Positions 1,513 to 20,042 are shown, counted from the stretch's first letter. The stretch: 20,042 nucleotides of DNA from Methanosarcinales archaeon (GCA_003661015.1 QMVI01000005.1:1-20042), one strand, 5' to 3'. The notes: generated from the sequence alone by a model not told the origin. A program made the numbers and translations.

Positions 1513-2829
1513 ATGAAGTGTGTAATGACGGTTGCAGGTTCTGATTCTGGGGGTGGTGCTGGGATACAAGCTGACTTGAAGACGTTTGGTGCTCTTGGAG
1601 TTCATGGTGTGAGTGTTGTAACTGCCATCACCTCACAGAACACGTTGGGCGTCCGTTCAATACATATTGTGCCTGTTGATGAAATCGAGTCTCAGTTTGA
1701 AGCAATCTTCGAAGACTTCAATGTTGAGTGGTGTAAAACAGGCATGCTTCCAAATGAGGAGACTATAAAGCTTGTTTGTGAAATACAGAAAAAGTATGGG
1801 TTGTCTCTGGTTGTTGACCCAGTTGTTTATGCGGAAAGTGGTGCGAAATTGACCAAATCAGCTGATGCATTGTGGAGGATTATGCAGAGATGCGTGGTTG
1901 CGACTCCAAACAAGATGGAGGCAGAGCTACTTTCAGGGGTCAGAATAGAATGCGAGGATGATGTTATTGAGGCGGGAGAGAGAATTGTTAAGAGGGGGTG
2001 TTCTGCTGTTGTGATAACGGGTGGTCATCTGGATGGCTCTGATTACTTGATTACATCTGATGAAGTTGAGGTGATAAGAGGGAAGTTGGTGGAAGGAGGA
2101 ACACACGGTGCTGGCTGTACTTTCTCTGCAGCCCTCACATCTTACTTATCGAGGGGATTTGACCTTCTGGAAGCATGCAAACTGGCAAAGGAATTTACAA
2201 AGTCTGCAATAATACACAGTACTCCTGTTGGAAGAGGTTCACATCCCGTTGACCAACTTCACGAGACAAGGGAATACTCAGAACGTTTTAAAGTCCTTTT
2301 GAATGTCAGGAAAGCGGTTGATATCATTGTCAGCACCCCCGAGTTTTCCGAGGTTATACCTGAGGTTGGCACAAATGTGGGCATGGGCATAATGGGGGCA
2401 AAAAGCGAGGAGGATGTTGCTGCTGTGAGCGGAAGGATTGTTCGTACTCTCTGTACGACATCTCTCACCCAGTAGCCAAACGCATGTGGTGATGTAGAGT
2501 TTGGGGCAAGTGGGCATGTTGCAAGAATAATACTCACCGCTCATTCCATATTTCCACACATAAGAGCTGCAATTAATATGAGGTATGGAGAGGATGTTAT
2601 CAGGGCATGTGAGATACTGGGTTTGAGGATAGGTAGTTTTTCGAGAGATGAAGAGCCGGAAGGTGTATCCACGATGGAGTGGGGAATTTCGACAGTGCTA
2701 TCCAAGGGAGAAGTCGATGTGATATACGATAAGGGAGCAGTAGGCAAGGAGCCCATGGTCAGGTTGATAGGAAAGGATGCAGTTGAGGTTGCACAGAGAG
2801 CTGTTGATATTGCAAGATTTATAAGTTAG
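1513..2829 (+). CDS. thiDN: Bifunctional ThiD-ThiN (HMP/HMP-P kinase fused to ThiN-type thiamine-phosphate synthase), with one in-frame TAG at 2473-2475
   Basis: ORF-track pieces 1513..2475 and 2578..2829 share a frame and are separated by a single TAG. Hand translation of 2476-2577 ([34 protein letters not shown]) has no other stop. The N-terminal half carries ThiD motifs ([32 protein letters not shown]). The C-terminal half carries ThiN-type motifs ([28 protein letters not shown]) on both sides of the TAG. The annotated end is itself a TAG (2827-2829); the next in-frame stop is TGA 2851-2853. Confidence 0.85.
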
Positions 2830-2847
2830 GAATTGGATAGAAATAAT

Positions 2848-3145
2848 GGGTGAGAGAGGAAGGGCGGCTTACGCACCCATGGGGTGTGAGGAAAGTCCCC
2901 CCTCCGTTTGGACGCACGAACGCCCGAAAGGGCGTAGGGCGAGAGCCCTGGCAATGGCACAGAAACGACACCGCCACGTATGAGTGCGATGATTCCGCAA
3001 GGATGAGGTCGTACGTGTGCGGATGAAACGGCAAATCCTCGTGGGTGCAAGCGGTGGATGAAGGCGGACGTCCAACCGCCTCCACCAATATGCGCTTAGC
3101 CAAATGCCGCCGAAACAGAAGGGGGCTTACTCTCCTCACTCACCC
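2848..3145 (+). ncRNA. rnpB: RNase P RNA (archaeal type A-like)
   Basis: The universally conserved GAGGAAAGUCC (CR-I) is present and pairs, as P4 (AAGUCCCCC / GGGGGCUU), with a 3' ACAGAAGGGGGCUUAC element (the CR-V-like ACAGAA..GGCUUA motif). P2 is GGCGGC (2863-2868) / GCCGCC (3106-3111). The P1 terminal helix pairs GGGUGAG.GAGGA (2848-2860) with UCUCC.CUCACCC (3131-3145). The region is GC-rich and structured, and its only ORFs (2819..3139, 2826..3050, 2869..3075) are composition artefacts. Ends are approximate, within a few nt. Confidence 0.9.
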
Positions 3146-4209
3146 TTTGCTTTCGACACTCCCGCCTCCTCAAATGTTTTCATTTCGGTGAGAATTTTAG
3201 CACTTGCCTCCACGATTGAGATTCCAAGCGCAGCACCTGTCCCCTCGCCGAGACGCATATTGAAATTGAATAGGGGATTGAGTCCAAGTTCATTCAGAAC
3301 CGCTGAATGTCCCGGTTCTGCCGATTTATGTGCTATAGTCAGGTAATTCTTGACTTCCGGATGCAATTTAGATGCAATCAAAGCCCCGACTCCGGAAATG
3401 AATCCATCCACTACGACCGGTACATGGTTAGCACATGCAGAAAGCACAACACCACATATGCCTCCTATCTCAAAACCACCAACCTTTGATAAAACATCTA
3501 TTGGGTCGGCGGGGTCTGGTTTGTGAAGCTCGATTGCATTTTCTATGGCTTCAATCTTTCTTTTTAGCTTTTCATCATCTATACCAGTTCCTCTCCCACA
3601 AACCTTCTACACGGGGAGTCCTGTGAATACCGCTGTGATGGCGGTGGAGGGTGATGTGTTCCCGATTCCCATATCCCCTGTTCCAACCACATCACATCCT
3701 CGTTTATAAATTTCCTCAAAAATCTCTATTCCAGCCTCTATAGAGCGTATGGCTTGTTTTCTTGTCATGGCAGGCTCTTTTTCCATATTCCTTGTTCCAT
3801 GTCCTATTTTTTTCACGATGAAGTCTTGACGAGATTCAGGGGGTGGTCTGATGTCGGATTTCACACCCATATCCACCACAATCACTTTTGCACCGACATG
3901 TCTTGCAAGAACATTTATCGCAGCTCCACCAGATAAAAAATTGTACACCATCTGGGCGGTAACATCTTGCGGGTATATACCAATACCACTCTCAACTATC
4001 CCATGGTCTCCCGCCATCGTGATTATGACCTTTGAGTCGATTCTTGGCATTGGATTTCGTGTTATGCCAGCGAGTTTGACCGACAGATCTTCAAGAAGCC
4101 CAAGGCTTCCAATGGGTTTTGTTAAATTGTCCTGCCTGTCCTTTGCCTTCTTCATCGCTTCTTCATCAAGTGGTTCGATTCTTTCAATAGTCCTTTCAAT
4201 GGTATCCAT
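3136..4209 (-). CDS. cobT: Nicotinate-nucleotide--dimethylbenzimidazole phosphoribosyltransferase (CobT), with one in-frame TAG at 3607-3609
   Basis: ORF-track pieces 3607..4209 and 3136..3447 are in the same frame. Hand translation across the gap reads ...[75 protein letters not shown]... with no other stop. CobT motifs lie on both sides ([13 protein letters not shown] upstream; [25 protein letters not shown] downstream). Total is 357 codons, a typical CobT length. Stop is TGA. Confidence 0.88.
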
Positions 4210-4232
4210 TTCTCACCCCACTATCACACTCA

Positions 4233-4243
4233 GTATAAAGTTT
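4233..4243 (-). promoter_or_regulatory. TATA-like box for cobT
   Basis: The minus strand reads AAACTTTATAC, centred about 27 nt upstream of the cobT ATG (4209). Confidence 0.3.
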
Positions 4244-4341
4244 AAAAAATTTTTTAACTTTAATCAAAATATTTTTAGAAAGTTGTAAATTATATTTGAA
4301 TTGGGAATTTGAATTAGAGGTATGAATAATCTATGGAATAA

Positions 4342-4351
4342 TCTATAAATG
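4342..4351 (+). promoter_or_regulatory. TATA-like box for the HerA-like gene
   Basis: TCTATAAATG is centred about 28 nt upstream of ATG 4374. It lies within the tandem 11-nt repeat GAATAATCTAT (4324-4334 and 4336-4346). Confidence 0.3.
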
Positions 4352-4373
4352 TATAACTGCACCATCATGAATT

Positions 4374-5945
4374 ATGTTGCTTGGCAGAGTATGTACCTTT
4401 GACGCAGATACTTTCGAATTCATAACAAGAAAAGTAATTCCTTCTGGTATGTTTGTGTGCTATTACGAAGAAGATAAGCCGGTACTGTGTAGAGTGTGCG
4501 AGTGTACACCTTTGAATGAGCTCCCACCTGAGCTGTTGGATGCAGAGTCGGTAAAATGGGAGGAGATAATGGAGTTTTTCGGGTTTGATACCACTAATTT
4601 CAAACTTTTTAGTGTAAAAGCAAAACTTATAGGATATTTTGACAAAAACCTCGGCGAATTCATAAATCCAAGAAGGATGCCTCCGCCCGGCACACCTGTT
4701 GAGGAAGCTGGCAGGGATGTGTTGGTGTACCTCAGCAAGGTGGGAGACGGAGAAGGCTCTGCTTACATAGGAGAGGTGCTTGGCACTGATGTTCCAGTGT
4801 ATATTTCGGTAAGGGATATCGTGAGTCAGCACCTCTCTGTCATAGCATCAACCGGTGCTGGAAAATCATATGCAGTGGGTGTGATTCTTGAGGAGATGAT
4901 GATGCCCAAGAACTGTGCATCTGTTCTTGTGCTTGACCCACATGGTGAATATTCATCGATGGTAGAAATCATGAACAATCAGAATTTCAGGTCTGAGGAG
5001 TATCGGGCTAATGTAATGGTTGTGAAGCCAGAGAAAATAAAAGTTAGGCTGGGCGACCTTGAGCCAGAGGACTTGTTATCACTCATAGATGATGGAAACC
5101 TCTCTGAGAAGATGAGAACCTTCCTCACCAAGGCATATTATGACGCAAAAGAAAACATCCTCACGTATTCGAGTCTAATTGGTGCGGTTGAAGCTTTGGG
5201 GGAGGACAAGAGACACGAATCAACTGTTGATGCACTTAGATGGAGGCTCGAAAAACTTCGAAGAGTGGGTGTTCTTGATGACTATCGTGGAATTCCTCTC
5301 AGAGATTATTTCAGAGCAGGAAGACTGACAATCGTTGATGTGAGTGGCATACCAGACAGTCTACAACAACTTGTTGCAACAGTTCTTCTGAGACTGCTGT
5401 TTGATGCAAGAAAGGGAACTATCACGGGAGAGTATGTAGAAGGAGATGAGAGATATATCCCTTCCCCAGCGTTTGTCGTACTTGAAGAAGCCCACAGATT
5501 TGCACCAAGAGAAGGATTCTCTCTATCGAAAAAGATACTGAAGACAATTCTTTCTGAGGGAAGGAAGTTTGGTGTGGGCGTCTGCCTGATATCACAAAGG
5601 CCAAGCAAGATTGATCAGGATGTATTGTCTCAATGTCTGTCTCAAATCACACTGAGAATTGTGAATCCAGCTGACCAAGAGTACATAGCACAAACAGTAG
5701 AGAGTTTCAGCAGGGACATCGTGAGGGAACTACCTTCATTACCCACAGGTGTCGCCATCGTTTCTGGTATATGCATAAATACACCCACGCTTGTTAGGGT
5801 GAGGAACAGAATCATCAAACCGAGGATTGGGCAGTCGATAAATGCACCTGCGGAATGGAGGAGAATTGCCCAAGAGACAGATGACAGAATGTCGGAAGTG
5901 CCAGCACACAAATCATCATCGATTGAGGAGGACCTTGGGATATGA
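4374..5945 (+). CDS. HerA/DUF87-family P-loop ATPase (FtsK-HerA superfamily)
   Basis: 523-aa ORF with Walker A (IASTGAGKSYAVG), Walker B (FVVLEEAHRFAP) and the downstream EGRKFGVGVCLISQRPSKIDQDVLSQC...LRIVNPADQ block typical of HerA/DUF87 ATPases. The N-terminal ~130 aa resemble a HAS-barrel-like region. Stop is TGA, overlapping the ubiX ATG (ATGA). Confidence 0.8.
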   Translation: MLLGRVCTFDADTFEFITRKVIPSGMFVCYYEEDKPVLCRVCECTPLNELPPELLDAESVKWEEIMEFFGFDTTNFKLFSVKAKLIGYFDKNLGEFINPRRMPPPGTPVEEAGRDVLVYLSKVGDGEGSAYIGEVLGTDVPVYISVRDIVSQHLSVIASTGAGKSYAVGVILEEMMMPKNCASVLVLDPHGEYSSMVEIMNNQNFRSEEYRANVMVVKPEKIKVRLGDLEPEDLLSLIDDGNLSEKMRTFLTKAYYDAKENILTYSSLIGAVEALGEDKRHESTVDALRWRLEKLRRVGVLDDYRGIPLRDYFRAGRLTIVDVSGIPDSLQQLVATVLLRLLFDARKGTITGEYVEGDERYIPSPAFVVLEEAHRFAPREGFSLSKKILKTILSEGRKFGVGVCLISQRPSKIDQDVLSQCLSQITLRIVNPADQEYIAQTVESFSRDIVRELPSLPTGVAIVSGICINTPTLVRVRNRIIKPRIGQSINAPAEWRRIAQETDDRMSEVPAHKSSSIEEDLGI

Positions 5946-6529
5946 GGATAGTGGTTGGAATGACCGGAGCAAGCGGGATACAGATAGGATTGAAGATACT
6001 TGATGTGCTGAGCGAGGGAGGGGATGACATTGACATAGATCTGATACTCTCGAAACCAGCTCTCAGAATATTACAACTCGAGACTGACATGTTTCCAGAA
6101 GATGTGGTTGAAAAGGCTACGTTTGTGTGGGACGATTATGATATGGATGCTCCAGTAGCGAGCGGCTCCTGTCGATTTGATGGCATGGTTGTTGTACCGT
6201 GCAGTATGAAGACACTTGGAGAAATAGCATCAGGCATATCCCAGACGCTCATTTCAAGGGTTGCTGATGTATGTCTGAAAGAGAGAAGAAAACTCGTCCT
6301 CGTTCCGAGGGAGACACCTCTCAACGTCATACATCTGGAGAACATGTTGAAAGTTGCAAGGGCTGGAGCCATTGTGCTTCCAGCATGTCCTGCATATTAC
6401 ACAAGACCAAGGACTGCTGAGGATTGCATAGATTTCATAGCAGGCAGAGTTCTGGATATGCTTGGTGTCAAGCATTCTCTATACACAAGTTGGGAAGAGT
6501 TGAGAGAGGACGAACTCAGAGAAGGCTGA
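5942..6529 (+). CDS. ubiX: Flavin prenyltransferase UbiX (prenylated-FMN synthase)
   Basis: 195-aa ORF. Motifs: MRIVVGMTGASG N-terminus, VVVPCSMKTLGEIASG, and LKERRKLVLVPRETPL..IHLENM. These form the characteristic UbiX/Pad1 flavoprotein pattern. Confidence 0.88.
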   Translation: MRIVVGMTGASGIQIGLKILDVLSEGGDDIDIDLILSKPALRILQLETDMFPEDVVEKATFVWDDYDMDAPVASGSCRFDGMVVVPCSMKTLGEIASGISQTLISRVADVCLKERRKLVLVPRETPLNVIHLENMLKVARAGAIVLPACPAYYTRPRTAEDCIDFIAGRVLDMLGVKHSLYTSWEELREDELREG

Positions 6530-7673
6530 GTACCTCTTTCAGAATCTCTGAACTCTTTGGTCTGTCCTCATAGAGCTGCGGTATCTTAACAGTCTTTCCA
6601 TCGAGCCTTACAATCTCTCCACCTTCATCAAGTCCGAGCTTTGCAACCGGGAATGAATGGTGTGCGAGCTTTGTTGTGAGCGTTGGATGAGGCGACAGAG
6701 AGATTATTTTCGCATCGTTGCATGGAAGTTCGAATAGCACATCTCCACACAGGTCTATTATCAGGTCAGCTCCGCTTTTGTATATTGGTTCGGATTTTGT
6801 CCATTCGCCATCATATTTGATGGCATTTATGGAACCACTCCTTTCCATCATGAGTGTGCAAACCCCTCTTGAATTTGCGTTCAGGAATAGAGGTGAGAAT
6901 GAGAATGTAGTTTTCAGTTCAAGTGTCTCTTTCAACTCCAAAAAAGGTTTGAGCTCTTCATCCTTTACAGCCTCGTTTCCTATGATTACAACGCCATCCT
7001 CTGCCCTCTTTATTAGCCTTACAAGGTTTATTATCTCCTTTTGTTCAACATATTTTGTGGGTCTTGGAACACTCCCAGCTATCGCATCTGAGAGTATTGT
7101 GTAAAACTTGCTTATTTCAGCATACTCGACCTTCATATACTTGTTTACAACTCTGCCACACGATGATTGGTGCGCATCTATACACACAGTCTTCCTGTCT
7201 TTCTCCCATCCTTGTTGTCTTTTTTCTCCCCTTGGATAGTAAGAGTACATCGAAAGATGTCTTGGATGTGTGCTCAAAGGGTCACAAAAGAGGTATAGGA
7301 TAACATCTGCGTTGTCTTTTATCCAGTCAAGGCTAACTTCCCTCAATTCTCCTCGGAGTAATAGTTCCAGTACATGTCCGTGGTAGAGAGATGTCTCGTT
7401 ATCGACTCTTGCACCGACTTTTTCTGCTATATCAAGAGCATAACCAACGGCTTCCTGAGAGAGGTTTGATAGCCCATATATCAGAGGAGTAGATGCCTTA
7501 TCCAACTCCTGAGCAATCAGTTCGGCAACCTCCTCAACATCCAGCTCTTTCTTTAGATTTGCTTTGAGGTATTCAGTTCCTTTCCGACAGGCATTGAAGA
7601 TATCTGCCCCGTCTATCACCACGTCCTCACATGCGAGGGCACAACCCGTGCATACAGTAGTTATGGTACTCAT
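6516..7673 (-). CDS. Formylmethanofuran dehydrogenase subunit B (FwdB/FmdB)-like molybdopterin-oxidoreductase-family protein, divergent and orphan
   Basis: 385-aa ORF. It has an N-terminal Cys cluster (VCTGCALACED...NACRKG), then PLIYGLS, VGARVDNETSLYHG, NADVILYLFCDPLSTHPRH, and a C-terminal block (SLSPHPTLTTKLAHHSFPVAKLGLDEGGEIVRLDG), collinear with FwdB as I recall it. No fwdA/C/D genes are adjacent. Confidence 0.6.
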   Translation of the reverse strand: MSTITTVCTGCALACEDVVIDGADIFNACRKGTEYLKANLKKELDVEEVAELIAQELDKASTPLIYGLSNLSQEAVGYALDIAEKVGARVDNETSLYHGHVLELLLRGELREVSLDWIKDNADVILYLFCDPLSTHPRHLSMYSYYPRGEKRQQGWEKDRKTVCIDAHQSSCGRVVNKYMKVEYAEISKFYTILSDAIAGSVPRPTKYVEQKEIINLVRLIKRAEDGVVIIGNEAVKDEELKPFLELKETLELKTTFSFSPLFLNANSRGVCTLMMERSGSINAIKYDGEWTKSEPIYKSGADLIIDLCGDVLFELPCNDAKIISLSPHPTLTTKLAHHSFPVAKLGLDEGGEIVRLDGKTVKIPQLYEDRPKSSEILKEVLSLL

Positions 7674-7697
7674 GTTAAATGGACAGACAACCTTCGT

Positions 7698-7706
7698 GTA
7701 TATATT
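7698..7706 (-). promoter_or_regulatory. TATA-like box for the FwdB-like gene, inside a 13-nt direct repeat
   Basis: The minus strand reads AATATATAC, centred about 29 nt upstream of ATG 7673. CCTTCGTGTATAT occurs twice (7691-7703 and 7708-7720). Confidence 0.3.
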
Positions 7707-7727
7707 GCCTTCGTGTATATGTTGTTT

Positions 7728-8837: not shown

Positions 8838-8843
8838 GGACTT

Positions 8844-9029
8844 TTATGACATCTCAGAAAGGATTTTGATTTTCTCCATGATCTTGTCTTCTCTTCTTTC
8901 TATTAGCTCTCTGACAGCGTCTCTCACCGCCTCACTCACAGACGGAAATTCACCACATGCCACCAGTATATTGAGCATGCGTATCTGTTGTTCCGGAAGC
9001 CTCACAGTTATCTTTTCCATGGCTCTCAT
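8844..9029 (-). CDS. cdrS: Small ribbon-helix-helix (CopG/CdrS-like) DNA-binding protein immediately upstream of ftsZ
   Basis: The core MEKITVRLPEQQIRMLNILVACGEFPSVSEAVRDAVRELIERR shows the RHH pattern (beta strand plus two helices). Likely starts are ATG 9029 or 9020. The track ORF start at 9146 adds a Cys-rich extension that reads through repeat DNA. Synteny with ftsZ matches the cdrS-ftsZ2 arrangement described in haloarchaea. Confidence 0.7.
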   Translation of the reverse strand: MRAMEKITVRLPEQQIRMLNILVACGEFPSVSEAVRDAVRELIERREDKIMEKIKILSEMS

Positions 9030-9046
9030 CCTTTCTGACTTTGGGG

Positions 9047-9142: not shown

Positions 9143-10861
9143 TCATAACACATTTATCTTGGCGGGTGGTAATGTGATGATAATCCTTGTTCCCTCTCCC
9201 TCTTCCGAATGTATCAGTATGCTACCACCCAGAGACCTCACGATACCATACGAAACAGACAAACCAAGTCCAGTACCTTCACCAACCGGCTTTGTTGTGA
9301 AGAATGGCTCAAACACATGCGGCAGCACATCTTTTGGTATTCCTATCCCATTGTCCTCAATCTCGATGACAACCATGCCATCCTTTTCGTAAGTGTGTAT
9401 CTTTATTACCTTGTCCTGTGTCTCTTTATGATTCAGTGCCCATATTGAGTTCGATATTATGTTCAGAAAGACTTGCATGAGCTTCTCCCTTTCGCCCATC
9501 ACACTGCTTTTGGCATCGAGCATTTTTTCAACTTTTATTCCTCTCAGCTCATGGGCGAGGATTGTGAGAGTCTTTTCGATAACATCGTTGATATTCAGCT
9601 CATAAAATTCTCCTCCCCCTTTTCTTGAGAAGTCGAGAAGGTCTGAGACAATCTTCTTGATCCTCATTCCAGCCTCTTCGATCTCGCAGACAATTTCGTA
9701 GTGCTCGCTATCAGATGGCAGTTCGTCCTTCAATATCCAAGCATAGTTCAGTATTACCGTGAGCGGGTTGTTAATTTCGTGTGCAACTCCCCCAGCCAAC
9801 TGTCCAATTGATACAAGTCTCTCTGCATGGGCAAGCTGTGCTTCGAGTTTTTTTCTCTCTTCTTCAAGCTCTTTGATACGGGTTTTATCTAAGATAACCC
9901 CATCAACATGTTCGTTGATTTTTCTTCCCCGCTCTACAACATATTTCCCGTTGACAGTTCTGTACTCGGTTCTGTAAGGTTCCCCCTCCCGTATGTATTT
10001 CATCACGTTCTCTTTATCTTCGGGATGAATGAGTGTGAGATATGATTTTCCTATGAGTTCCGATGGTTCCAGTCCGAATAAGTTCTTGCTCTCATCACTC
10101 ATGTACTCGATTGTCAAGTTGTCATCCAGAAGTCTTCTGAAAACAACCCCCGGAATGTTTTGAACAAGCGTCTCAAATCTTTCCTTGGCTTTTTTAATTT
10201 CCTCTTCTGACTTCAGACGCTCTGTTATATCAACAAGACTTCCGAGAACAACTTTCTTTCCTCTGTATGTGGCTGATGCACCGTAAGCTTCAACCCACCT
10301 AACAGACCCGTCTTTTTTTACTAATCTGAACCTCAAAGGGGGCACATCCATCTTTCCTTCAAGCCTCTCCTTTATTCGATTCTTAACAATTTCTCTGTCT
10401 TCTGGATGCACCACTTCCAATAACGCATTTTTTCCAGTCAGCTCGTCTCTTTTGTATCCAAGTATTCTTGAAAACTTTGGATTCACATATACCAGCGTTC
10501 CATTCTCATCCACCATATACACACCATTTATTTCATTCTCGGTGAGAGTTCTGAACAATTCCTCTCTCTCTGCCAGAGCTTCTTTAGCGTCTTTGAAGTA
10601 TTTGAGCTCGTTCAGGATTACATCACACTCCTTTATCAGGGCAAGTGCAAATATCAGCATCCCAGTGCCCATCAGTATGCTCTCTGAAAGTTGGAGAATT
10701 ATGCTGTCTGATATCTCACTGACCACATTCACAAGTAAGCCGAGAGAAAACAGACCCCACCCTACGTTGACAAGGAATATTTTAAGTTTGGTGAGAAAGA
10801 AAAACGCAACTACTGAAGCACAGAATATTGCTATGTTGATTGCGATGAGCTCTGACATCAT
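9143..10861 (-). CDS. Membrane-anchored PAS/PAS sensor histidine kinase
   Basis: The N-terminal region is hydrophobic (about 3-4 TM segments). Two PAS-like modules follow (FRTLTENEINGVYMVD...; FETLVQNIPGVVFRR...), then an H-box (GVAHEINNPLTVI) and the HATPase N/G boxes (NIISNS...EDNGIGIP...GTGLGLS). The track ORF starts at 10915. I favour ATG 10861/10858 (MMSEL...) because a TATA-like ATTATATTG sits about 26 nt upstream and it avoids crowding the radA promoter. Confidence 0.85.
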   Translation of the reverse strand: MMSELIAINIAIFCASVVAFFFLTKLKIFLVNVGWGLFSLGLLVNVVSEISDSIILQLSESILMGTGMLIFALALIKECDVILNELKYFKDAKEALAEREELFRTLTENEINGVYMVDENGTLVYVNPKFSRILGYKRDELTGKNALLEVVHPEDREIVKNRIKERLEGKMDVPPLRFRLVKKDGSVRWVEAYGASATYRGKKVVLGSLVDITERLKSEEEIKKAKERFETLVQNIPGVVFRRLLDDNLTIEYMSDESKNLFGLEPSELIGKSYLTLIHPEDKENVMKYIREGEPYRTEYRTVNGKYVVERGRKINEHVDGVILDKTRIKELEEERKKLEAQLAHAERLVSIGQLAGGVAHEINNPLTVILNYAWILKDELPSDSEHYEIVCEIEEAGMRIKKIVSDLLDFSRKGGGEFYELNINDVIEKTLTILAHELRGIKVEKMLDAKSSVMGEREKLMQVFLNIISNSIWALNHKETQDKVIKIHTYEKDGMVVIEIEDNGIGIPKDVLPHVFEPFFTTKPVGEGTGLGLSVSYGIVRSLGGSILIHSEEGEGTRIIITLPPAKINVL

Positions 10862-10919
10862 AACCACAATTGTTGCACAATATACAATATAATGTTTATT
10901 TTCTATTATATTCACAATA

Positions 10920-11962: not shown

Positions 11963-12670
11963 ATGCAAGTCAAGGTTGTTGCGACAGACATCGATGGGAC
12001 CCTCACAGACCGCTCAAGAAAACTGAATCCATCTGCTCTGCAAGTTGTTCAGAATCTCTCGGAGTGCGTGAAGGTTGTGCTTGCAACAGGAAACACCCTG
12101 TGTTTTACTTGGGCATGTTCTGTTCTTTTGGGAACTGGTGGGGCGGTTGTTGCGGAGAACGGGGCGGTTGTTGCGAGTGGGTACGATTCTGAGCCTCTCA
12201 TTCTCGGGGATAAGGAGAGATGCCTTAGAGTTTATCCCATTCTTGTGGAGAAGTTCTCTGCAAGAGCACTTGATATCGATTACAGACTTGGAGAGGTTGT
12301 TCTTGAACGGAATTTTTGCCTGTCCGAAGCTAAACGGATAGTTGAGCAGTATGACCCAGAACTGGAATTGGTCGATACAGATTTTGCAATTCATGTGAAG
12401 CTGAAGAATGTGAGCAAGGCAAGAGGACTGGAAAGACTGGTCAGCACCTTTTCTGCGAGTATGGATGAAGTTGCTGCTTTTGGCGACTCGAGGAATGATA
12501 TCCCGATGCTTGAAAAGGCAGGTGTCTCTCTGACAGTTGCGAATGCTCCATCAGATGTGAAGGGTGTGTGTGATTATGTGAGTCCGCATCCATTTGGAGA
12601 AGGGTTTGTTGATGGTGTTCGTTGGCTTGTTGAGAGGGGATTTATAGAGGATGTCGCAGGACTGTTTTGA
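11963..12670 (+). CDS. HAD-IIB (Cof-type) phosphatase, archaeal phosphoglycolate-phosphatase-like
   Basis: HAD motifs: DIDGTLTD (I), VLATGN (II), K...GDSRNDIPM (III/IV). The size is typical of the family. The likely start is ATG 11963 (MQVKVVATDIDG), preceded by GGGGAGA. The track start at 11936 overlaps the radA end. Confidence 0.75.
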   Translation: MQVKVVATDIDGTLTDRSRKLNPSALQVVQNLSECVKVVLATGNTLCFTWACSVLLGTGGAVVAENGAVVASGYDSEPLILGDKERCLRVYPILVEKFSARALDIDYRLGEVVLERNFCLSEAKRIVEQYDPELELVDTDFAIHVKLKNVSKARGLERLVSTFSASMDEVAAFGDSRNDIPMLEKAGVSLTVANAPSDVKGVCDYVSPHPFGEGFVDGVRWLVERGFIEDVAGLF

Positions 12671-13607
12671 TACCAGAAGTCTCGCTTTCAGAGTCGAGAG
12701 AGAGAAAGGTGAGAAAGTAAGACGTTGTCTTTTAGAGTAGGGACTTCTCAGAAAAGATTTGAAACCTTTTTCAGATGAAAAATTTGTTTATTTTCCTGTA
12801 AAAGATAGTGCAGAGGGTGTTATGGACGGGGATTTTGTCTGGAAGAGTTTTCAACCCATAAAAAAGCGAAAAACCCACTTGGACATTATTGGCAGAATAA
12901 GTTTTGACATCGTGGGTGATATAGCGCTTGTTGACCTCAAGGCTATCAGTGGGTTGGATAGGAAGGAGGTGGCAGACACACTCCTCAGCACACTCCCTAT
13001 CAGGTCAGTTTTTGGTGTTGGGGAAGTCAGTGGAGAGTTTAGAGTTGCCCAGCTCGTTCATTTGGGAGGAAGCAGAAACACACTGACTCTTCACAAAGAA
13101 AATAAATGCGTTTTCGAGCTTGATGTAGCCAGAGTTTACTTCAATCCGAGACTTGCAACAGAGAGAGCAAGGGTCGAGAGAAGAATCTCGCAAGAGGGGG
13201 CAAGGGTAATTCTCGATATGTTCGCTGGCGCAGGTCCATTTTCGATACTGATCGCAAAGATGGACAAAACCAGAGTTGTTCATGCGATAGAAAAGAATCC
13301 GGTTGCATGTCATTTTCTCAGAAGGAATGTTGAGCTAAATAAAGTGAGTAATGTGATAGTACATGAGGGAGATGTGAGAGATATACTTGCCACCCAGAAG
13401 ATAGAGGCGGATGCAATAATCATGAACCTCCCCCACACAGCAATCAACTTCCTCCCTCTTGCGTTGAAGTGTTCGCACCCCGGTACCCTCATATTCTTAT
13501 ATACGATATCTGCGGATGAGCCAGACATACAGGGAATGGAGAGGGCGAGGAAGGTGAAATCATATGCTCCGGGTGTTTCCATATGGTGTGTTGAAGTGAG
13601 GGTTTAA
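12651..13607 (+). CDS. trm5: Trm5/Taw2-family (Met-10+) tRNA methyltransferase, with one in-frame TAG at 12738-12740
   Basis: The track ORF 12759..13607 starts at a TTG. The same frame is open upstream to ATG 12651 except for one TAG: MSQDCFDTRSLAFRVEREKGEKVRRCLLE-TAG-GLLRKDLKPFSDEKFVYFPVKD. This is collinear with the N-terminal D1 domain of archaeal Trm5 (pattern GE..RR.L.E..LL.KD.K.....Y.Y.P.KD). The body has FDIVGDIALV, GEFRV..L.HL.G...T.HKEN, VYFNPRLATER, DMFAGAGPFSI, and NLP. Confidence 0.85.
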
Positions 13608-13617
13608 AAGAAAGAGT

Positions 13618-14904
13618 TTAAATTATAACCATACCAGTCTTTGTGATTGCAACCTCCCTAGGGAATGGATCTATCTTACCCTTGCCCTTCAACACCCTTA
13701 TATTTCTCTTCCTTCCACCGTCCACATATACAATGTGTACGATATAGTCCATGTATTGAGATATGTTAACACCAGTTGCAGGTGGCATCTCATTCATCGA
13801 GATGTTTGCCAAGAACATTGCAGTTGCGCCAACTGCCTTTAGATGGCTTGACAATATACAGAGATATTGTATGAGCTCATCTCCTAGAACTCTTACAGGT
13901 AAATCAATTGAGTCGATTACAACTCTCGAGGGTTTTGTCTTCCACAGTATATCGATAATATCTTTGAGTATCATTTCTGGTGAGGAAAGAGGTACATCAT
14001 AGACTGAGAGGTCCTTTATCCCAGTCCCATCAATGCTCTTTAGGTCTCTTCTAATCTCTTCTGCACTTCTTTCAAGTAATATGAGGAGCACCTTTTCCCC
14101 TTTCTTAAGCCCATCTAGTAGGAAGTGGATTCCAAGTGTTGTTTTCCCACTTCCTGGCTGTCCACCTATGAATGTAATGCTCCCCTTTATAACTCCTCCA
14201 CCAACCATTACATCAAGCTTTTCTATACCGGTTGATACTAACTCGTCTGAAATAAGAGGAGGCTTGTCAGAGGGGGTAATAACATCAAAACCAGAGCGGG
14301 TGATTACATAGGGGAACCCCACCATCGAATGTTCTGAGCGTCTCATCTTGCGCACAAATAATCTTCTCCTTAGATAGCCATTTTCCATCTGTGAACTCAA
14401 CTCGATTACTGAGTCTGCCATGTACATTGCATCTGTTTCCTTGCCTTCAACTGTCATCAAAATCGTCATTCCCTCGAGGCCGAAAAGAATGTTTGACAAC
14501 TCTCTTCTTTTCCTCATCCTATCGAACGATAGAAGGAGAGTACTGACAGAGTCTATAACCGCTCTTTCAGCTCCCCAGCTTATGAGTTCTGAGACAATCG
14601 ATATCAGTCGTTCATCAAAATCTGGGTCGAGAGGTGGAATCTCGAAAATTCTTATTTTGTCATTTTCTTTAAGATTCCATCCATATGAAGCCATATCTTC
14701 AATAAATTTCTTTGTGCTCTGGCCAACAAGAACAATAGCACCTTTCTCATTTTTATTGCACCCTTCGAGTATAAACTGAGTCGCAAGTGTTGTCTTTCCA
14801 GAACCCGGTGTACCAAGAAGTATTGTTGTTGAGCCCTTTGGAATTCCACCCCCCATCACTCTATCAAGATTATAATTTCCAGAAGAAATCCTCTGGATGG
14901 ACAT
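13618..14904 (-). CDS. KaiC-like double-domain RecA-superfamily ATPase
   Basis: 428-aa ORF with two tandem RecA/KaiC-type domains, each with a Walker A (LLGTPGSGKTTLATQF and IGGQPGSGKTTLGIHF) and DS-type Walker B regions. Confidence 0.85.
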   Translation of the reverse strand: MSIQRISSGNYNLDRVMGGGIPKGSTTILLGTPGSGKTTLATQFILEGCNKNEKGAIVLVGQSTKKFIEDMASYGWNLKENDKIRIFEIPPLDPDFDERLISIVSELISWGAERAVIDSVSTLLLSFDRMRKRRELSNILFGLEGMTILMTVEGKETDAMYMADSVIELSSQMENGYLRRRLFVRKMRRSEHSMVGFPYVITRSGFDVITPSDKPPLISDELVSTGIEKLDVMVGGGVIKGSITFIGGQPGSGKTTLGIHFLLDGLKKGEKVLLILLERSAEEIRRDLKSIDGTGIKDLSVYDVPLSSPEMILKDIIDILWKTKPSRVVIDSIDLPVRVLGDELIQYLCILSSHLKAVGATAMFLANISMNEMPPATGVNISQYMDYIVHIVYVDGGRKRNIRVLKGKGKIDPFPREVAITKTGMVII

Positions 14905-14927
14905 AACAGAGCTGTTAACAACTAATT

Positions 14928-14937
14928 GTTTATAACT
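14928..14937 (-). promoter_or_regulatory. TATA-like box for the KaiC-like gene
   Basis: The minus strand reads AGTTATAAAC, centred about 28 nt upstream of ATG 14904. Confidence 0.3.
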
Positions 14938-14960
14938 TTATTGTTTTTTGTGATGAAAAG

Positions 14961-14972
14961 GCTATATATAGC
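14961..14972 (+). promoter_or_regulatory. Palindromic TATA box for the TPR gene
   Basis: GCTATATATAGC is centred about 26 nt upstream of ATG 14992. Confidence 0.35.
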
Positions 14973-14991
14973 TGAAGATACATGTGTGTGT

Positions 14992-15831
14992 ATGGAAGAA
15001 GTAATTGCGACCTGCTCGAAAGCTCTCGAGCTTGCGGGTGAAGGTAAAATTGATGATGCACTTCAGATTCTCGATGAGCTTTATGAATCACTTGAAGACG
15101 AACTTGAGAAGTCTTTTGTACTTGAGAAAAAAGCTGGCATTCTGTCCATGGGCGGAAGGGTTGAGGAGTCTCTCTCGCTCTACGAGGATGTTATATCCAC
15201 ACAACTAAAGGCTGTGGATGAGGACATACCAATGGCTGTTGAGATGGTATCAACCTCATTCTACAATCTTGGTAGCATCCTTACAGACATAGGGGCTTTT
15301 AAGGAGGCTGAACTCGCATACGAACGCTCTCTTGATTTCCTCGAGAGAATCGGTGGCGAGGAGAATTATGCAGCAGATGTGGGTGGAATTCTTTATCATC
15401 TGGGTTTTCTTGCACAGGAGAGAGGCGATAACGAACTTGCAAGAAACAGATATGAAAAGGCTCTCAGAATATTCGAGACAATAGAATCCGCAGAGGTTCA
15501 TACCGTGATGTGTGCAAACATACTCAACAACTTAGGGGTGATAGAAGTCCGAAGTGGTGAATTGGAGAGAGCAGAAGAGTTTTTCAAGCAAGCATCTGGC
15601 AGATATGTTGAGGTTGATAGTTTGGAGTCTTTGTTCTATGCTGCAACCACTCTTGGCAGTCTTGGAATGATCAGACGTGAACTCGGAAAGATAGATGATG
15701 CAAGGGATGCGTACTCCGATGCGCTGGAGATAGCACAGAAGCTTCTTGATAAAAGTGGAGATGATGAGCTTTATAGGGCTGTTGCAATGCGTCTCATAAG
15801 CGAGATTGAAGAAATGAAGAGTGCACTTTAA
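14992..15831 (+). CDS. Tetratricopeptide-repeat (TPR) protein
   Basis: Repeated 34-aa-like A/Y/L helical pattern (e.g. AELAYERSLDF, ARNRYEKALRIF, AEEFFKQA, ARDAYSDALEIA). The start is placed at ATG 14992 (MEEVIATCSKALEL) rather than the track's TTG 14926, on promoter spacing. Confidence 0.7.
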   Translation: MEEVIATCSKALELAGEGKIDDALQILDELYESLEDELEKSFVLEKKAGILSMGGRVEESLSLYEDVISTQLKAVDEDIPMAVEMVSTSFYNLGSILTDIGAFKEAELAYERSLDFLERIGGEENYAADVGGILYHLGFLAQERGDNELARNRYEKALRIFETIESAEVHTVMCANILNNLGVIEVRSGELERAEEFFKQASGRYVEVDSLESLFYAATTLGSLGMIRRELGKIDDARDAYSDALEIAQKLLDKSGDDELYRAVAMRLISEIEEMKSAL

Positions 15832-15845
15832 TTTTTTACTTTACT

Positions 15846-16610
15846 TTACTTTTCTTTTCTTTTTTCTGGTGAATTTTCAATTATCACTTCAAACCTCTCT
15901 TTATATCTTTCAAGCATGGATATCGTTTTTGGAGCAAGCATTAGTATGAAGATGACGTTTCCAATTGCATGCATTGTATCAAACCAGAAACTCGCGAGTT
16001 GGGTGAGGACGAAGGTTTTCCAGGTGAGTGGATAAACATACGTAGCCCAGTGCCATATGTTCAGAATCCATCCATAGAGATACCCCCACACCGCACCATA
16101 TATGGAAAGAAACAAGAGACTTAAGTTTCTTTTAGAATTTCCAATGTTCTTTCCAATTCCAAAGAAATTCCGTAGAAATCCACTTGTTAGTCCAGCAAGT
16201 CCCCACCCAAGCATCTGGAATATTGTCCAAGGACCTTGACCGAGGAAGAGATTTGAGACAGCAGCACTTATGGCTCCAACCATGAATCCCGCAATAGGCC
16301 CAAAAACGAGACCTGTGCAGATTGTGAAGAATGTGCATGGCTGGACACTTGGAATGGTGGCAAATGGAACCCTTGAAACAGCAGAGATTGTTCCAATCAT
16401 GGCAATCAATGCTATTATTTTGGTGGATGTGTGTCTCTCTTCGAATTCAAACAGCATCCCAAGGACTGTGAGACATCCAATTGTGAGGATGCCAATTGAC
16501 CACGTACGTGATAGTTCTCTTGAGTGTTCAGGACTAACAATCGGCATAATGAGATATAACACCACGATTATGATTGCCAGAGCAATCATCAATTTCCCCT
16601 TTCCTCTCAC
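15846..16610 (-). CDS. Polytopic membrane protein, putative ECF-transporter S (substrate-capture) component
   Basis: 254-aa ORF with about 7 hydrophobic segments. It is the last gene of the ECF operon, and its GTG start overlaps the ATPase TGA (GTGA at 16607-16610). No specific substrate family is recognised. Confidence 0.6.
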   Translation of the reverse strand: MRGKGKLMIALAIIIVVLYLIMPIVSPEHSRELSRTWSIGILTIGCLTVLGMLFEFEERHTSTKIIALIAMIGTISAVSRVPFATIPSVQPCTFFTICTGLVFGPIAGFMVGAISAAVSNLFLGQGPWTIFQMLGWGLAGLTSGFLRNFFGIGKNIGNSKRNLSLLFLSIYGAVWGYLYGWILNIWHWATYVYPLTWKTFVLTQLASFWFDTMHAIGNVIFILMLAPKTISMLERYKERFEVIIENSPEKRKEK

Positions 16611-18334
16611 CTTCCCCCCCGCCTTAAACCTATATCAATTACCTCAAGTGCCTCCTCCACAGTGAGAATCTCCTCTGGCACACCATATCTTCTGAAAGAT
16701 TGTATCATCCTGTTTATCTGGGGTGAAAATAGGAGGGCGTTGGCAAGCCCCTTATGTTTCTCATCATCTATTACAATCTTACCTTCACTCATTATTACTG
16801 CTCTGTCTCCATGTCTTGCAGCAGTTTCAACATCGTGTGTCGAGTATATCACTGTCCTCCCATTTTTTCTGTACCCATCCAGTATTTTCATAATGTATTC
16901 CTTGAGTGAGAAATCGAGCCCTCTCGTTGGCTCATCGAGTATCAGTATCTCTGGCTTGAATGCAAGAACACTCGCTATCGCAACTCTCTGTTTCTCTCCT
17001 CCAGACAGACTTCTTGGATAGCAATCTCTGTATCTCTCGAGTTTTAACAGTTTGAGAACCTCCTTCACCCTTTCTTCGATGTTATCGTATCCCATACTCT
17101 TGAGTGGGAATGCGACCTCTTCAAAAACGGTATCCGCAATTAAGTGGTCATTTGGATTCTGAAAAACGAATCCAACATGTCTTGCAAGCTCAGCAACCGT
17201 TGCCTCCCTCGTATCAAGCCCACAGACCACCACTCTCCCTTTGCTGGGTATGTTGAGCCCTATCAGATGCTTTAGTAGGGTTGTCTTTCCAGATGCATTC
17301 CTTCCCAAGAGGGCAACAAACTCACCTTTCCGAACATTCAAACTCACACCCTTTAAGATGGGCTGGTCGTATTCATATCCGAACCATACATTCTCAATCG
17401 AGATAACAATTTTTCCCGTTTGGTGGTGTGTTTTTGGTTTCCACCCCACTCCATTGACCCTTCTGAAGAGAGGTCTTAGAATCTTTCTCCCCTCCTTTAC
17501 CGTCAGAGGAATCTTGAACCCATCTCGGAGTACATCTGGCTCGTAATGTTCCATCACTTTGAGAGTCAAATCAACTACTGGAGGGATTTCTGTACCAGTC
17601 TCTCTCAATCTTTCGTCTCTCATGACTTCTCTTGGCTCTCCATCGGCGATTATCCTACCCCTGTTCATCACAATCACTCTGTCAACAAGATGCATCACTC
17701 TGTCGAGTCTGTGTTCTATCAGTATGACCGTGATACCGAGTTCATCGTTTAACCTCTCCACAACTTTTAAGACATCCTCTGCCCCCTGCGGGTCTAACTC
17801 ACTTGTCGGCTCGTCAAGAACAAGTACATTTGGATGAAGTGCAAGAACACTCGCTATCGCAACTCTCTGTTTCTCTCCTCCAGACAGTTCTTTCGGATGT
17901 TTCTTTCTCAGATGAAGTATCCCAACCGTATCGAGAGCTTCTTCAATCCTCTTTCCTATCACATCCTTTGGCAGTCCTATGTTCTCAAGACCAAATGCTA
18001 TTTCTCTCTCTACTTCCATTGATACCAGCTGATTCTCTGGGTCTTGGAAAACGAATCCAACATGTCTTGCAAGCTCAGCAACCGTTGCCTCCCTCGTATC
18101 AAGCCCACAGACCACCACTCTCCCCCCAAATTTTCCTCCATGAAAATGAGGAACAAGACCATTGAGACATCTTGCAAGCGTACTCTTACCCGAGCCAGAG
18201 GGACCTGCAAGAAGCACAAACTCTCCCTCATCGATTGCAATACTCACATCCACTAAAGCGGGCGTCTGACTTCCCGAGTATGTAAAGTGCAGTCCTTCTG
18301 TGAGAACAATTCCTTCTCCGCATTCTCTGTTCAT
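16607..18334 (-). CDS. ecfA: Fused tandem ECF-transporter ATPase (EcfA-EcfA', two ABC domains)
   Basis: Two complete ABC cassettes: Walker A (GPSGSGKST and GRNASGKTT), two LSGGEKQRVAIASVLA signatures, and two Walker B motifs (LVLDEPTS and LILDEPTR). The start is placed at ATG 18334 (MNRECGEGIV...), which overlaps the ecfT TGA (ATGA). The track start at 18382 lies inside ecfT. Confidence 0.9.
   Translation of the reverse strand: MNRECGEGIVLTEGLHFTYSGSQTPALVDVSIAIDEGEFVLLAGPSGSGKSTLARCLNGLVPHFHGGKFGGRVVVCGLDTREATVAELARHVGFVFQDPENQLVSMEVEREIAFGLENIGLPKDVIGKRIEEALDTVGILHLRKKHPKELSGGEKQRVAIASVLALHPNVLVLDEPTSELDPQGAEDVLKVVERLNDELGITVILIEHRLDRVMHLVDRVIVMNRGRIIADGEPREVMRDERLRETGTEIPPVVDLTLKVMEHYEPDVLRDGFKIPLTVKEGRKILRPLFRRVNGVGWKPKTHHQTGKIVISIENVWFGYEYDQPILKGVSLNVRKGEFVALLGRNASGKTTLLKHLIGLNIPSKGRVVVCGLDTREATVAELARHVGFVFQNPNDHLIADTVFEEVAFPLKSMGYDNIEERVKEVLKLLKLERYRDCYPRSLSGGEKQRVAIASVLAFKPEILILDEPTRGLDFSLKEYIMKILDGYRKNGRTVIYSTHDVETAARHGDRAVIMSEGKIVIDDEKHKGLANALLFSPQINRMIQSFRRYGVPEEILTVEEALEVIDIGLRRGGR
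16961..17008. repeat. 48-nt perfect direct repeat, copy A (ABC signature region)
   Basis: Identical to 17840-17887. It encodes LSGGEKQRVAIASVLA. Confidence 0.95.
17163..17239. repeat. 77-nt perfect direct repeat, copy A (C-terminal ABC half)
   Basis: Identical to 18048-18124. It encodes GRVVVCGLDTREATVAELARHVGFVFQ in both halves of the fused ATPase, and the flanking bases differ. Confidence 0.95.
17840..17887. repeat. 48-nt perfect direct repeat, copy B (ABC signature region)
   Basis: Identical to 16961-17008, at an offset of 879 nt (in frame). Confidence 0.95.
18048..18124. repeat. 77-nt perfect direct repeat, copy B (N-terminal ABC half)
   Basis: Identical to 17163-17239, at an offset of 885 nt (in frame). 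Confidence 0.95.
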
Positions 18335-19266
18335 TGATGACCTCCATGAGCCAGTGGTTCTGAGGAATTGTACGTAATCCACACAGATACATAGGGTATG
18401 ACCAGCATAGAAAACAGCAAGACACCGAGGATTATTGACTCGAGTTCAATTGGAGAAAGTACAGGATAGTATTCATATATGCCATAACCGAGAAATCTTG
18501 CAATTATTCCCACGAGGAGAGTTGAAAAAATAAATACGCTTACGAGTTTATCTGCATTGGAAAGTTTCAGTTCTTTATAGAATGTTCTTTTTTTGTTCTC
18601 TCCAAAAGCTCTTGCCTCCATCGCCTCTGCAATTTCAACACTTCTCTCGAGTGAGTTTGCCAGCAGAGGCACAAGCACAGGAAATCTGTTTTTTATTCTT
18701 TTGATTATTGAGCCTCTATCGAGTTCAAGTCCTCTTGTTCTCTGTACGTCTGTGATTGTCTCAACATCAGAAAGCAGAGTGGGTATGAATCTTGATGAGA
18801 GGGATACAATTAGCACAGATTTGTATGGCACCTTCATTTTTAACATCAACATGAGAATATCGTCTGGATGCACACTCACAGTTATGATTGCAAATGCAGA
18901 TAGGATAACAAGCAATCTAACACCCATCATGATACCATAGAAGAGTGCTTCAAGTGTTATGACCGGAGAACCAAAGAAAGGCAGGTCATATCCGAGACTG
19001 TACAAAATATGCTCACCATTGTGATTGAATGCGATGTTTAGCAGAACTATCACCGGAATGAAAAAAAGTCCGAACTTAACAAAGAATGACCACTCTTTGA
19101 TTATTTTTCCAAATACTGCTGGCGGTATTGTTGCAACAAAAAGCAATATCAAAACAACGGGATTGTCAAAAATAAGGCTCAGTATTAGGATTGTGATTGC
19201 CCATATTATCTTTGGCATTGCATTCATCCTGTGAATCGGCGTGTTTGCCTCTTTATAGACCATCAT
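18331..19266 (-). CDS. ecfT: ECF-transporter transmembrane T component (EcfT/CbiQ family)
   Basis: Polytopic membrane protein with the coupling-helix region (SSRFIPTLLSDVETITDVQRTRG...RSVEIAEAMEARAF), matching the Ala-Arg-Gly-type motifs of EcfT/CbiQ. The start is placed at ATG 19266 (MMVYKE...), overlapping the upstream TGA (ATGA). Confidence 0.85.
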   Translation of the reverse strand: MMVYKEANTPIHRMNAMPKIIWAITILILSLIFDNPVVLILLFVATIPPAVFGKIIKEWSFFVKFGLFFIPVIVLLNIAFNHNGEHILYSLGYDLPFFGSPVITLEALFYGIMMGVRLLVILSAFAIITVSVHPDDILMLMLKMKVPYKSVLIVSLSSRFIPTLLSDVETITDVQRTRGLELDRGSIIKRIKNRFPVLVPLLANSLERSVEIAEAMEARAFGENKKRTFYKELKLSNADKLVSVFIFSTLLVGIIARFLGYGIYEYYPVLSPIELESIILGVLLFSMLVIPYVSVWITYNSSEPLAHGGHQ

Positions 19267-19730
19267 GGTACTGGAATCACCTCTCCATTCACAACCACAC
19301 ACGCATACCTGTATCTTATTTCATCCGGGTTCAGAAGCACATTTACACCGCCCTCAACCTCCTCGGCAGTGGTACCAGCCACCACCATCACCATATTCTC
19401 ATTGGCAGCAGTTCCCTTTGGATTCCAAGGGTTGTTTACTGCAACTATAACACATCCATCATCGTATTCCCTTCCATTAACCGTCACAACCTTTCCATTC
19501 TCGATATATGCGTACAAATTGAGTCTCTGAGCTATGGAGAAGATATGGGATGCTGGCTCAAATGATGCATCCCCTATCAGTATCAGATTGTCTTTTTTCT
19601 TCTCATCATCCTTCAACTCATCCCATCTCTTTACCTTCACACTTGCCCCAGCACCTTCAAGATATTTCTTTATCTTCTCAGCATCATCATTGAATCCGTT
19701 TTGATAGACTATGATTGTATCTCTAACCAT
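19263..19730 (-). CDS. Hypothetical soluble protein/domain; either a separate 155-aa protein or the C-terminal domain of the DUF4430 protein if TAG 19737-19739 is decoded
   Basis: ORF MVRDTIIVYQNGFNDDAEKIKKYLEGAG...VVNGEVIPVP. I recognise no family. It is in the same frame as the upstream DUF4430 ORF, separated by TAG-AAC-GGC. Stop is TGA, overlapping the ecfT start. Confidence 0.6.
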   Translation of the reverse strand: MVRDTIIVYQNGFNDDAEKIKKYLEGAGASVKVKRWDELKDDEKKKDNLILIGDASFEPASHIFSIAQRLNLYAYIENGKVVTVNGREYDDGCVIVAVNNPWNPKGTAANENMVMVVAGTTAEEVEGGVNVLLNPDEIRYRYACVVVNGEVIPVP

Positions 19731-19736
19731 GCCGTT

Positions 19737-20042
19737 CTATCCATGCACGAAGGGCTCTGGATATGCACCTACCATCGCCACCCTTCCATAGGTCTCCCAT
19801 GCGTGATAATCCCATATCTCGAAATCCCCGGGGTGGAGTACGTACTGGGCTGCTCCTACCTCTGCAAAAAACCCGTTTATGGTGTAGAACCAATCCACCT
19901 TTTCACCCATCTTGAATAGGGATTCATGTCCGTTTATTGCCTCTACAAATCCACCCCCATAAGCTGTTTTAACAGATGCAACTTTTTTCAGGGCATCCAT
20001 TGCAGTGGTTTTACCTTCTTCTATCTCAACCTCTTTGTCGAG
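19737..20042 (-). CDS. DUF4430 (transcobalamin-like C-terminal domain) protein; N-terminus outside the window; the frame meets a TAG at 19737-19739
   Basis: Open frame from the window edge: LDKEVEIEEGKTTAMDALKKVASVKTAYGGGFVEAINGHES...DWFYTINGFFAEVGAAQYVLHPGDFEIWDY. This matches the DUF4430 pattern (t.a.d.L......G.fv..I.G......W.y.vNg....vga..y.l..GD.i.w.Y). Confidence 0.7.
   Translation of the reverse strand, partial: LDKEVEIEEGKTTAMDALKKVASVKTAYGGGFVEAINGHESLFKMGEKVDWFYTINGFFAEVGAAQYVLHPGDFEIWDYHAWETYGRVAMVGAYPEPFVHG

Follow-up and report, generated by a model that had tools for sequence, protein, structure and literature searches.

In-Frame TAG Codons Probably Translated as an Amino Acid in a Second Species of the JdFR-19 Archaeal Lineage

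A 20,042-nucleotide stretch of DNA from a Methanosarcinales archaeon (GCA_003661015.1, QMVI01000005.1:1-20042; the whole stretch is referred to as the window) carries five in-frame TAG codons in four otherwise intact genes, namely thiDN (two), cobT, trm5, and the gene for a DUF4430-domain protein (one each). The explanation favored here, with good though not complete confidence, is that UAG specifies an amino acid, most likely pyrrolysine (Pyl) under Genetic Code 34, in the genus of the archaeon JdFR-19, with termination achieved by UGA and UAA only. Genetic Code 34 assigns pyrrolysine to every TAG and was proposed by Kivenson et al. 2024 (bioRxiv 10.1101/2024.09.30.615893). Such recoding is already in the literature for the sister genome JdFR-19; the window is a further example of it, without a new code or mechanism. 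The new point is a modest one and concerns the turnover of TAG between two species, with four of seven sites differing at 93% DNA identity.

JdFR-19, sampled from crustal fluids of the Juan de Fuca Ridge and placed in the Methermicoccaceae, was called a “recoding outlier”; its 191 predicted Pyl proteins are the highest number reported for any organism, TAG occurs in 13% of its genes, and an ancient code switch was inferred (bioRxiv 10.1101/2024.09.30.615893). When GTDB species representatives were scanned with RadA, a single close match (98%) emerged, on contig MTMG01000014.1 of this organism (Methanomicrobia archaeon JdFR-19; 50,301 bp), while the next match reached at most 72%; the same contig was also reached via CobT. 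The window and the contig are colinear, with 93% DNA identity across nearly the whole window. From this colinearity and the gap between the RadA matches, the window organism is placed, on sequence grounds, as a second species of the JdFR-19 genus.

TAG-bearing genes and their counterparts in JdFR-19

Open reading frames (ORFs) in the window were read with TGA and TAA alone as stops, which yielded 19 protein genes and one RNA gene, four of the 19 bearing TAG. The genes and codons of concern are as follows.

1513-2853, plus strand: thiDN, a fusion of hydroxymethylpyrimidine phosphate (HMP-P) kinase and ThiN thiamine-phosphate synthase, with two TAGs read through and a TGA end at 2851-2853
2473-2475, plus strand: first ThiDN TAG, codon 321, within the ThiN domain
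2827-2829, plus strand: second ThiDN TAG, near the natural C-terminus, followed by seven codons (ELDRNNG) and the TGA
3136-4209, minus strand: cobT, nicotinate-nucleotide:dimethylbenzimidazole (DMB) phosphoribosyltransferase, 357 codons including one TAG, with a TGA end
3607-3609, minus strand: CobT TAG, codon 201, within the DBI_PRT domain
9416-9418, minus strand: histidine-kinase codon in the HATPase_c domain, CAG (Gln) in the window and TAG in JdFR-19
12651-13607, plus strand: trm5, a Trm5b-like tRNA m1G37 methyltransferase, with one TAG and a TAA end
12657-12659, plus strand: Trm5 codon 3, CAG (Gln) in the window and TAG in JdFR-19
12738-12740, plus strand: Trm5 TAG, codon 30, in the N-terminal D1 domain and inside Trm5_N
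19263-20042, minus strand: gene for a DUF4430-domain protein, upstream of transporter genes of the energy-coupling factor (ECF) type, with its 5′ end beyond the window, one TAG, and a TGA end
19737-19739, minus strand: TAG of the DUF4430 protein, TAC (Tyr) in JdFR-19

The five TAGs lie exactly where the first-pass annotation, made from the sequence alone, had placed them, and its statement that the window genes contain no frameshift and no in-frame TGA or TAA also stands. It had further described conserved motifs on both sides of the TAGs in ThiDN, CobT, and Trm5, and a Pfam domain indeed spans the codon in each case. For CobT, the DBI_PRT match covers residues 11-351 and the entire profile (1-329 of 329) with 468 bits, and 120 full-length homologues were found at 61-70% identity. 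Opposite the TAG, JdFR-19 has TCG (Ser) in an intact protein of 357 amino acids, and the column among the 120 homologues is occupied by A, E, R, K, or S. Against JdFR-19, the 156 codons 3′ of this TAG show 19 synonymous and three non-synonymous changes.

ThiDN is composed of a Phos_pyr_kin domain (residues 11-247) and a ThiN domain (residues 264-430), both assigned by Pfam. Its first TAG falls in a loop of variable sequence and frequent indels, flanked by the conserved GRI and EFGAS motifs and gapped in the ThiN structures, and homologues in the PDB align on either side of this TAG. This TAG is kept in JdFR-19 (L001) and in the Logan assembly L002 despite substitutions in its neighborhood, and the 117 codons that follow it contain ten synonymous and nine non-synonymous changes relative to JdFR-19 without a stop or frameshift. 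The TAG at 2827 and its tail are identical in JdFR-19. Reading through this second TAG adds seven codons and overlaps no other protein-coding gene; the ThiN profile stops at residue 430, and the structure 2php runs about 13 residues beyond the aligned end.

The trm5 gene starts with an ATG at 12651, with another TAG upstream of the start at 12645, and its product matches Trm5_N (residues 14-56), TYW2_N_2, and TRM5-TYW2_MTfase in Pfam. The structures 5yac and 2yx1 align with the protein from residue 10 on, and the solved Trm5 structures carry Leu or Asn opposite codon 30. The TAG at this codon is retained both in JdFR-19 and in the independent ENA assembly L087, which is 99.9% identical, and the sequence downstream of it has accumulated 41 synonymous and 17 non-synonymous changes against JdFR-19.

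In the DUF4430 protein, the Pfam match lies N-terminal to the TAG. The ORF had been proposed to join the next one in frame across this codon, and it does so for 158 further codons up to the TGA, without a stop or frameshift and with 13 synonymous and 16 non-synonymous changes; in JdFR-19 the same ORF is continuous over 358 codons, stop to stop. The C-terminal 158 residues have no match in Pfam or NCBIfam. The reverse situation is found in the histidine kinase, where the TAG occurs in JdFR-19 and the gene caller has cut the protein into 479 and 77 amino acids. This PAS histidine kinase (9143-10915, minus strand) evolves far faster than its neighbors, with 72 non-synonymous changes, 81 synonymous changes, and ten gapped codons against JdFR-19.

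Gene order is little conserved beyond the genus, where only the synteny of RadA and phosphoglycolate phosphatase is kept, and the residues opposite TAG outside the genus were instead taken from homologue and PDB alignments. The first-pass annotation had judged the TAG positions to be variable in homologues and had suggested aligning orthologues at these codons. The alignments agree with that judgment: the columns are variable, with A/E/R/K/S in CobT, Leu/Asn in Trm5, and a gapped loop in ThiN, and JdFR-19 itself has Ser and Tyr at the CobT and DUF4430 sites.

Codon-by-codon alignment of the two genomes over about 6,000 codons revealed 741 synonymous and about 318 amino-acid-changing differences. 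Seven stop-type codons stand in frame across both genomes and all seven are TAG, with no in-frame TGA or TAA in either genome over the aligned codons. Three of the TAGs are common to both (ThiDN 2473, ThiDN 2827, and Trm5 12738), and at the other four sites TAG in one species is exchanged with a sense codon in the other, namely TCG (Ser), TAC (Tyr), and CAG (Gln) twice; these four exchanges amount to about 1% of all amino-acid replacements between the two species. Without constraint, a synonymous to non-synonymous ratio of about 1:3 would be expected, so the values of 19:3 for CobT, 41:17 for Trm5, and 10:9 for ThiDN point to purifying selection on the sequence 3′ of the TAGs. The ThiDN ratio is the most telling of these because its TAG is present in both genomes. 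Judged from these alignments, the pattern fits a translated sense codon and would not be produced by a stop, a pseudogene, or an error, and it suggests that gain and loss of TAG are not strongly selected against in this genus. The earlier view that random pseudogenisation was unlikely is thereby strengthened, with TAG either conserved or exchanged with sense codons under purifying selection.

The same TAGs also recur in independent assemblies, which excludes an assembly artefact. CobT gene calls in a separate 1.1-kb JGI contig (P0139) and in ENA assemblies (P0137) are both 200 amino acids long and end where the window has TAG, and the ThiDN gene call in ENA assemblies (P0141) stops at the residue where the window has its TAG. 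At the TAG sites that were compared, the Logan assembly L002 is identical to the JdFR-19 contig.

Between thiDN and cobT lies an archaeal RNase P RNA gene (2852-3141, plus strand; Rfam RF00373, 210 bits, full length), which the closing TGA of thiDN abuts. Its first bases are overlapped by this TGA and its 3′ end by the cobT stop, and only one of 282 positions differs from JdFR-19, against about 7% elsewhere. As a further observation, three of the four TAG genes (those for ThiDN, CobT, and the DUF4430 protein) may be cofactor-related, which is probably a coincidence.

Gene ends and other genes of the window

Seventeen gene ends in the window are readable, of which 11 are TGA and six TAA. The earlier count of 16 unambiguous ends (ten TGA and six TAA) matches this recount, which includes ThiDN as the eleventh TGA. 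None of the 17 is closed by TAG alone, and the same holds for the long genes in 28.7 kb of JdFR-19. Likewise, long out-of-frame overlaps (>60 nucleotides) caused by readthrough, the “Category 4” of Kivenson et al., are absent from the sample of about 49 kb.

In loci of related Methanosarcinales and Archaeoglobi with similar G+C content, TAG ends 10-27% of long ORFs, about 19% overall. The two nearest CobT relatives (L107 and L109, 70% and 64% identity), both at about 53% G+C and the latter named Methermicoccaceae by NCBI, end nine of 21 and seven of 22 called genes with TAG, together 16 of 43. The chance of finding no TAG among 17 ends is about 0.03 at the 19% background and about 0.0004 at that of these two relatives. 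The absence of TAG terminators is thus specific to the JdFR-19 genus, chance being an unlikely cause, and since TAG is a very common terminator in the two relatives, the recoding does not extend to them. Taken together, UAG behaves in the sampled genes of both species as a translated, evolving sense codon that is absent from gene ends. The first-pass proposal of genome-wide sense use or very efficient suppression is supported by both the sister comparison and the TAG-free gene ends.

The window proteins correspond to GenBank entries RLG22845-RLG22859 by exact protein look-ups. Its other features are listed below.

3′ end beyond the window: biotin carboxylase gene
6516-7673, minus strand: FwdB-like protein
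9143-10915, minus strand: the PAS histidine kinase described above
13618-14904, minus strand: two-domain KaiC-like ATPase
15846-20042, minus strand: apparent ECF-type uptake operon, including genes for a putative ECF S component, a fused ECF ATPase, and an ECF T component
Elsewhere in the window: HerA-like ATPase, UbiX, FtsZ, a ribbon-helix-helix protein, RadA, phosphoglycolate phosphatase, and a TPR protein

The FwdB-like protein matches the whole model of formylmethanofuran dehydrogenase subunit B at 189 bits, against a cut-off of 328 bits, and has no Pfam match. The KaiC-like ATPase gene is missing from JdFR-19, where about 87 bp occupy the place of about 1.35 kb, a gene-sized indel. In the apparent ECF operon, the genes for the DUF4430 protein and the T component are accompanied by those for a fused double ATPase and for an S component whose match is weak.

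The inserted residue and competing readings

Both the inserted residue, most likely pyrrolysine, and its machinery, most likely pylT, pylSn/Sc, and pylBCD, are proposed by analogy with the literature on JdFR-19. This genome encodes PylSn, PylSc, and tRNAPyl (Guo et al. 2022, PMC9630628), and its PylRS/tRNAPyl pair was reported to work as a TAG suppressor in E. coli (bioRxiv 10.1101/2024.09.30.615893). Under the proposed mechanism, pyrrolysine would be made from lysine by PylB, PylC, and PylD and loaded by the split PylSn and PylSc onto tRNAPyl with its CUA anticodon, and the charged tRNA would decode every UAG without a special mRNA signal. The machinery would have to be expressed constitutively because UAG occurs in essential genes (trm5, thiDN, and cobT). 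Folding of the 120 nucleotides after each of the five TAGs gave z-scores of −0.3 to −1.6, and −2.2 at 2827, where the value reflects the adjacent RNase P RNA. No shared downstream structure resembling a selenocysteine or pyrrolysine insertion element (SECIS/PYLIS) was found by this folding, consistent with signal-free decoding.

Several points weigh against this interpretation. The sample is small, covering 20 kb of the window genome and 29 kb of JdFR-19. The window lacks any tRNA detectable by ARAGORN, and its 19 protein genes include no pyl gene. PylS of JdFR-19 or of the window genome was not recovered by searches whose limited reach says nothing on absence. Proteomic validation of Code 34 comes from M. 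alvi and M. burtonii only, which belong to other lineages (bioRxiv 10.1101/2024.09.30.615893), and “all TAG = Pyl” may overstate decoding efficiency given the ambiguity in M. acetivorans described below. Finally, the TAG at 2827 could be either a stop or a sense codon (“Category 2” of Kivenson et al.) and might still terminate.

The PylS searches gave the following results. With PylSc of D. hafniense, only Firmicutes appeared among the best 120 matches, and a search of representatives at 50% identity gave about 25 full-length PylSc representatives, the genomic contexts of which were bacterial loci, a UBA MAG, and one archaeal pylSc-pylBCD cluster (L083) beside an mtr operon. When metagenomes were scanned with L083 PylSc, its own contig and one 52% relative were the only matches, with nothing from the JdFR-19 metagenome. 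PylSc of A. arabaticum, the closest to that of JdFR-19 according to Guo et al., retrieved PylSc of JdFR-18 Hydrothermarchaeum (P0511), not that of JdFR-19.

The archaeal cluster itself lies on an unrelated contig (L083 10001-13949, also L084-L086 and L092; G+C 41%), where pylSc-pylB-pylC-pylD follow immediately after a complete mtrEDCBAFGH operon. Each of the four pyl genes exceeds its NCBIfam cut-off, and the PylSc shares at most 49% identity with the other full-length representatives compared. No PylSn or tRNA was detected near the cluster. Its pylSc and pylD genes close with tandem stops, TAG-TGA and TAG-TAA, respectively.

A more far-reaching version of sense decoding holds that UAG termination has been lost altogether in the genus, beyond Pyl-tRNA outcompeting the release factor, with Pyl codons coming and going almost neutrally. 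This is rather unlikely; in its favor, four of the seven TAG sites differ at 93% identity and make up about 1% of replacements.

Less probable still is ambiguous decoding, in which UAG would be read partly as pyrrolysine and partly as a stop by the archaeal release factor aRF1, yielding truncated and full-length products in proportions possibly tuned by Pyl expression. Such a dual meaning of UAG, as stop and as pyrrolysine, has been described for the Pyl-encoding methanogen M. acetivorans (Shalvarjian et al. 2025, PMC12626013), and the TAG at 2827, at the natural C-terminus of ThiDN with a back-up TGA seven codons on, would suit it. However, the other TAGs in ThiDN, CobT, and Trm5 lie well within individual catalytic domains of housekeeping enzymes, and truncated products would be useless, and TAG occurs in four of 19 genes while being wholly avoided as a terminator and exchanging freely with sense codons between the sister species. 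From these features, readthrough must be efficient.

Reassignment of TAG to a standard amino acid such as Gln, Tyr, or Ser, by a CUA suppressor tRNA unrelated to the pyrrolysine system, is very improbable. Codes in which TAG is read as Gln or as Tyr do occur in other organisms, and the residues facing TAG in the sister comparison are two Gln, one Tyr, and one Ser. The codons involved are, however, one-mutation neighbors of TAG, and the distant homologues, with A/E/R/K/S, L/N, or a gapped loop, reveal no consistent standard residue in the variable columns, a comparison of low power with seven sites. A working PylRS/tRNAPyl pair in JdFR-19 (bioRxiv 10.1101/2024.09.30.615893, PMC9630628) likewise argues for pyrrolysine, and the window offers no tRNA of any kind in favor of a suppressor.

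Least probable of all, and rejected, are the readings in which the TAGs arose as inactivating mutations or as mistakes of sequencing or assembly, the genes being pseudogenes or expressed as separate fragments (ThiD alone, or Trm5 without D1 from a TTG at 12759): standard-code gene callers do split the TAG genes, and Trm5 D2-D3 alone might keep activity, but every disruption is a TAG and none a TGA, TAA, or frameshift, the TAGs lie within domains rather than between them and are missing from true gene ends, selection persists 3′ of them (19:3, 41:17, 10:9), and the same codons recur in independent assemblies and in JdFR-19.

Significance and comparison with known systems

Translation of UAG, most likely as pyrrolysine, thus remains the preferred reading, and the window supplies a second and independent species, found in a different sample, for the archaeal lineage with the heaviest TAG recoding known. 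TAGs that are kept and exchanged with sense codons under selection provide evolutionary evidence for sense decoding that is independent of proteomics. The completeness of UAG reassignment is still debated, and the present comparison bears on the dispute between “Code 34”, with all TAG as Pyl, and “ambiguous amber decoding”. In practical terms, annotation with the standard code splits or truncates about one gene in five in the window. If UAG termination were lost, no natural example of a completed 21-amino-acid code would be clearer than the JdFR-19 genus, which might have an altered aRF1, and a comparison of the two sister genomes would give a direct measure of what pyrrolysine costs in fitness. 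To our knowledge, an altered aRF1 of this kind has not been shown for any archaeon.

Among known systems, the closest is Code 34 as described for JdFR-19, which shares with the window the same genus-level lineage, 93% DNA identity, a conserved gene order, and three identical TAG positions. The window TAGs correspond to the “Category 1” internal codons of that work, with homology on both sides and readthrough of more than 15 amino acids (the domains of ThiDN, CobT, and Trm5, and the DUF4430 ORF that is continuous in JdFR-19). TAG terminators are absent in both, and TAG-bearing genes number four of 19 in the window and three of about 26 in the JdFR-19 stretch, compared with the 13% published genome-wide. 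The difference from the published case is that the window represents another species, in which four of seven TAG sites differ and whose accession series suggests a place among Guaymas Basin MAGs.

The first-pass annotation had tied archaeal pyrrolysine to methylamine methyltransferases, a view that is out of date since recoding of this extent is no longer outside accepted knowledge (bioRxiv 10.1101/2024.09.30.615893). With the classical use of pyrrolysine in Methanosarcina (mtmB, mtbB, and mttB; PMC12626013), the window shares the presumed pylT, pylS, and pylBCD and the lack of an obligatory mRNA signal. In contrast to Methanosarcina, its TAGs lie in unrelated housekeeping genes and in a far larger share of genes, and TAG is never a terminator in the sampled genes. 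Moreover, the synthetase of the sister genome JdFR-19 is split into PylSn and PylSc (PMC9630628), unlike the fused enzyme of Methanosarcinaceae. A final contrast is with the reassignments of bacteria and phages, such as TGA to Gly in Gracilibacteria/SR1 or TAG to a standard residue in some phages, which use a mutated standard tRNA and a residue of the set of 20, whereas the window would employ a 21st amino acid with its own biosynthesis and its own synthetase.

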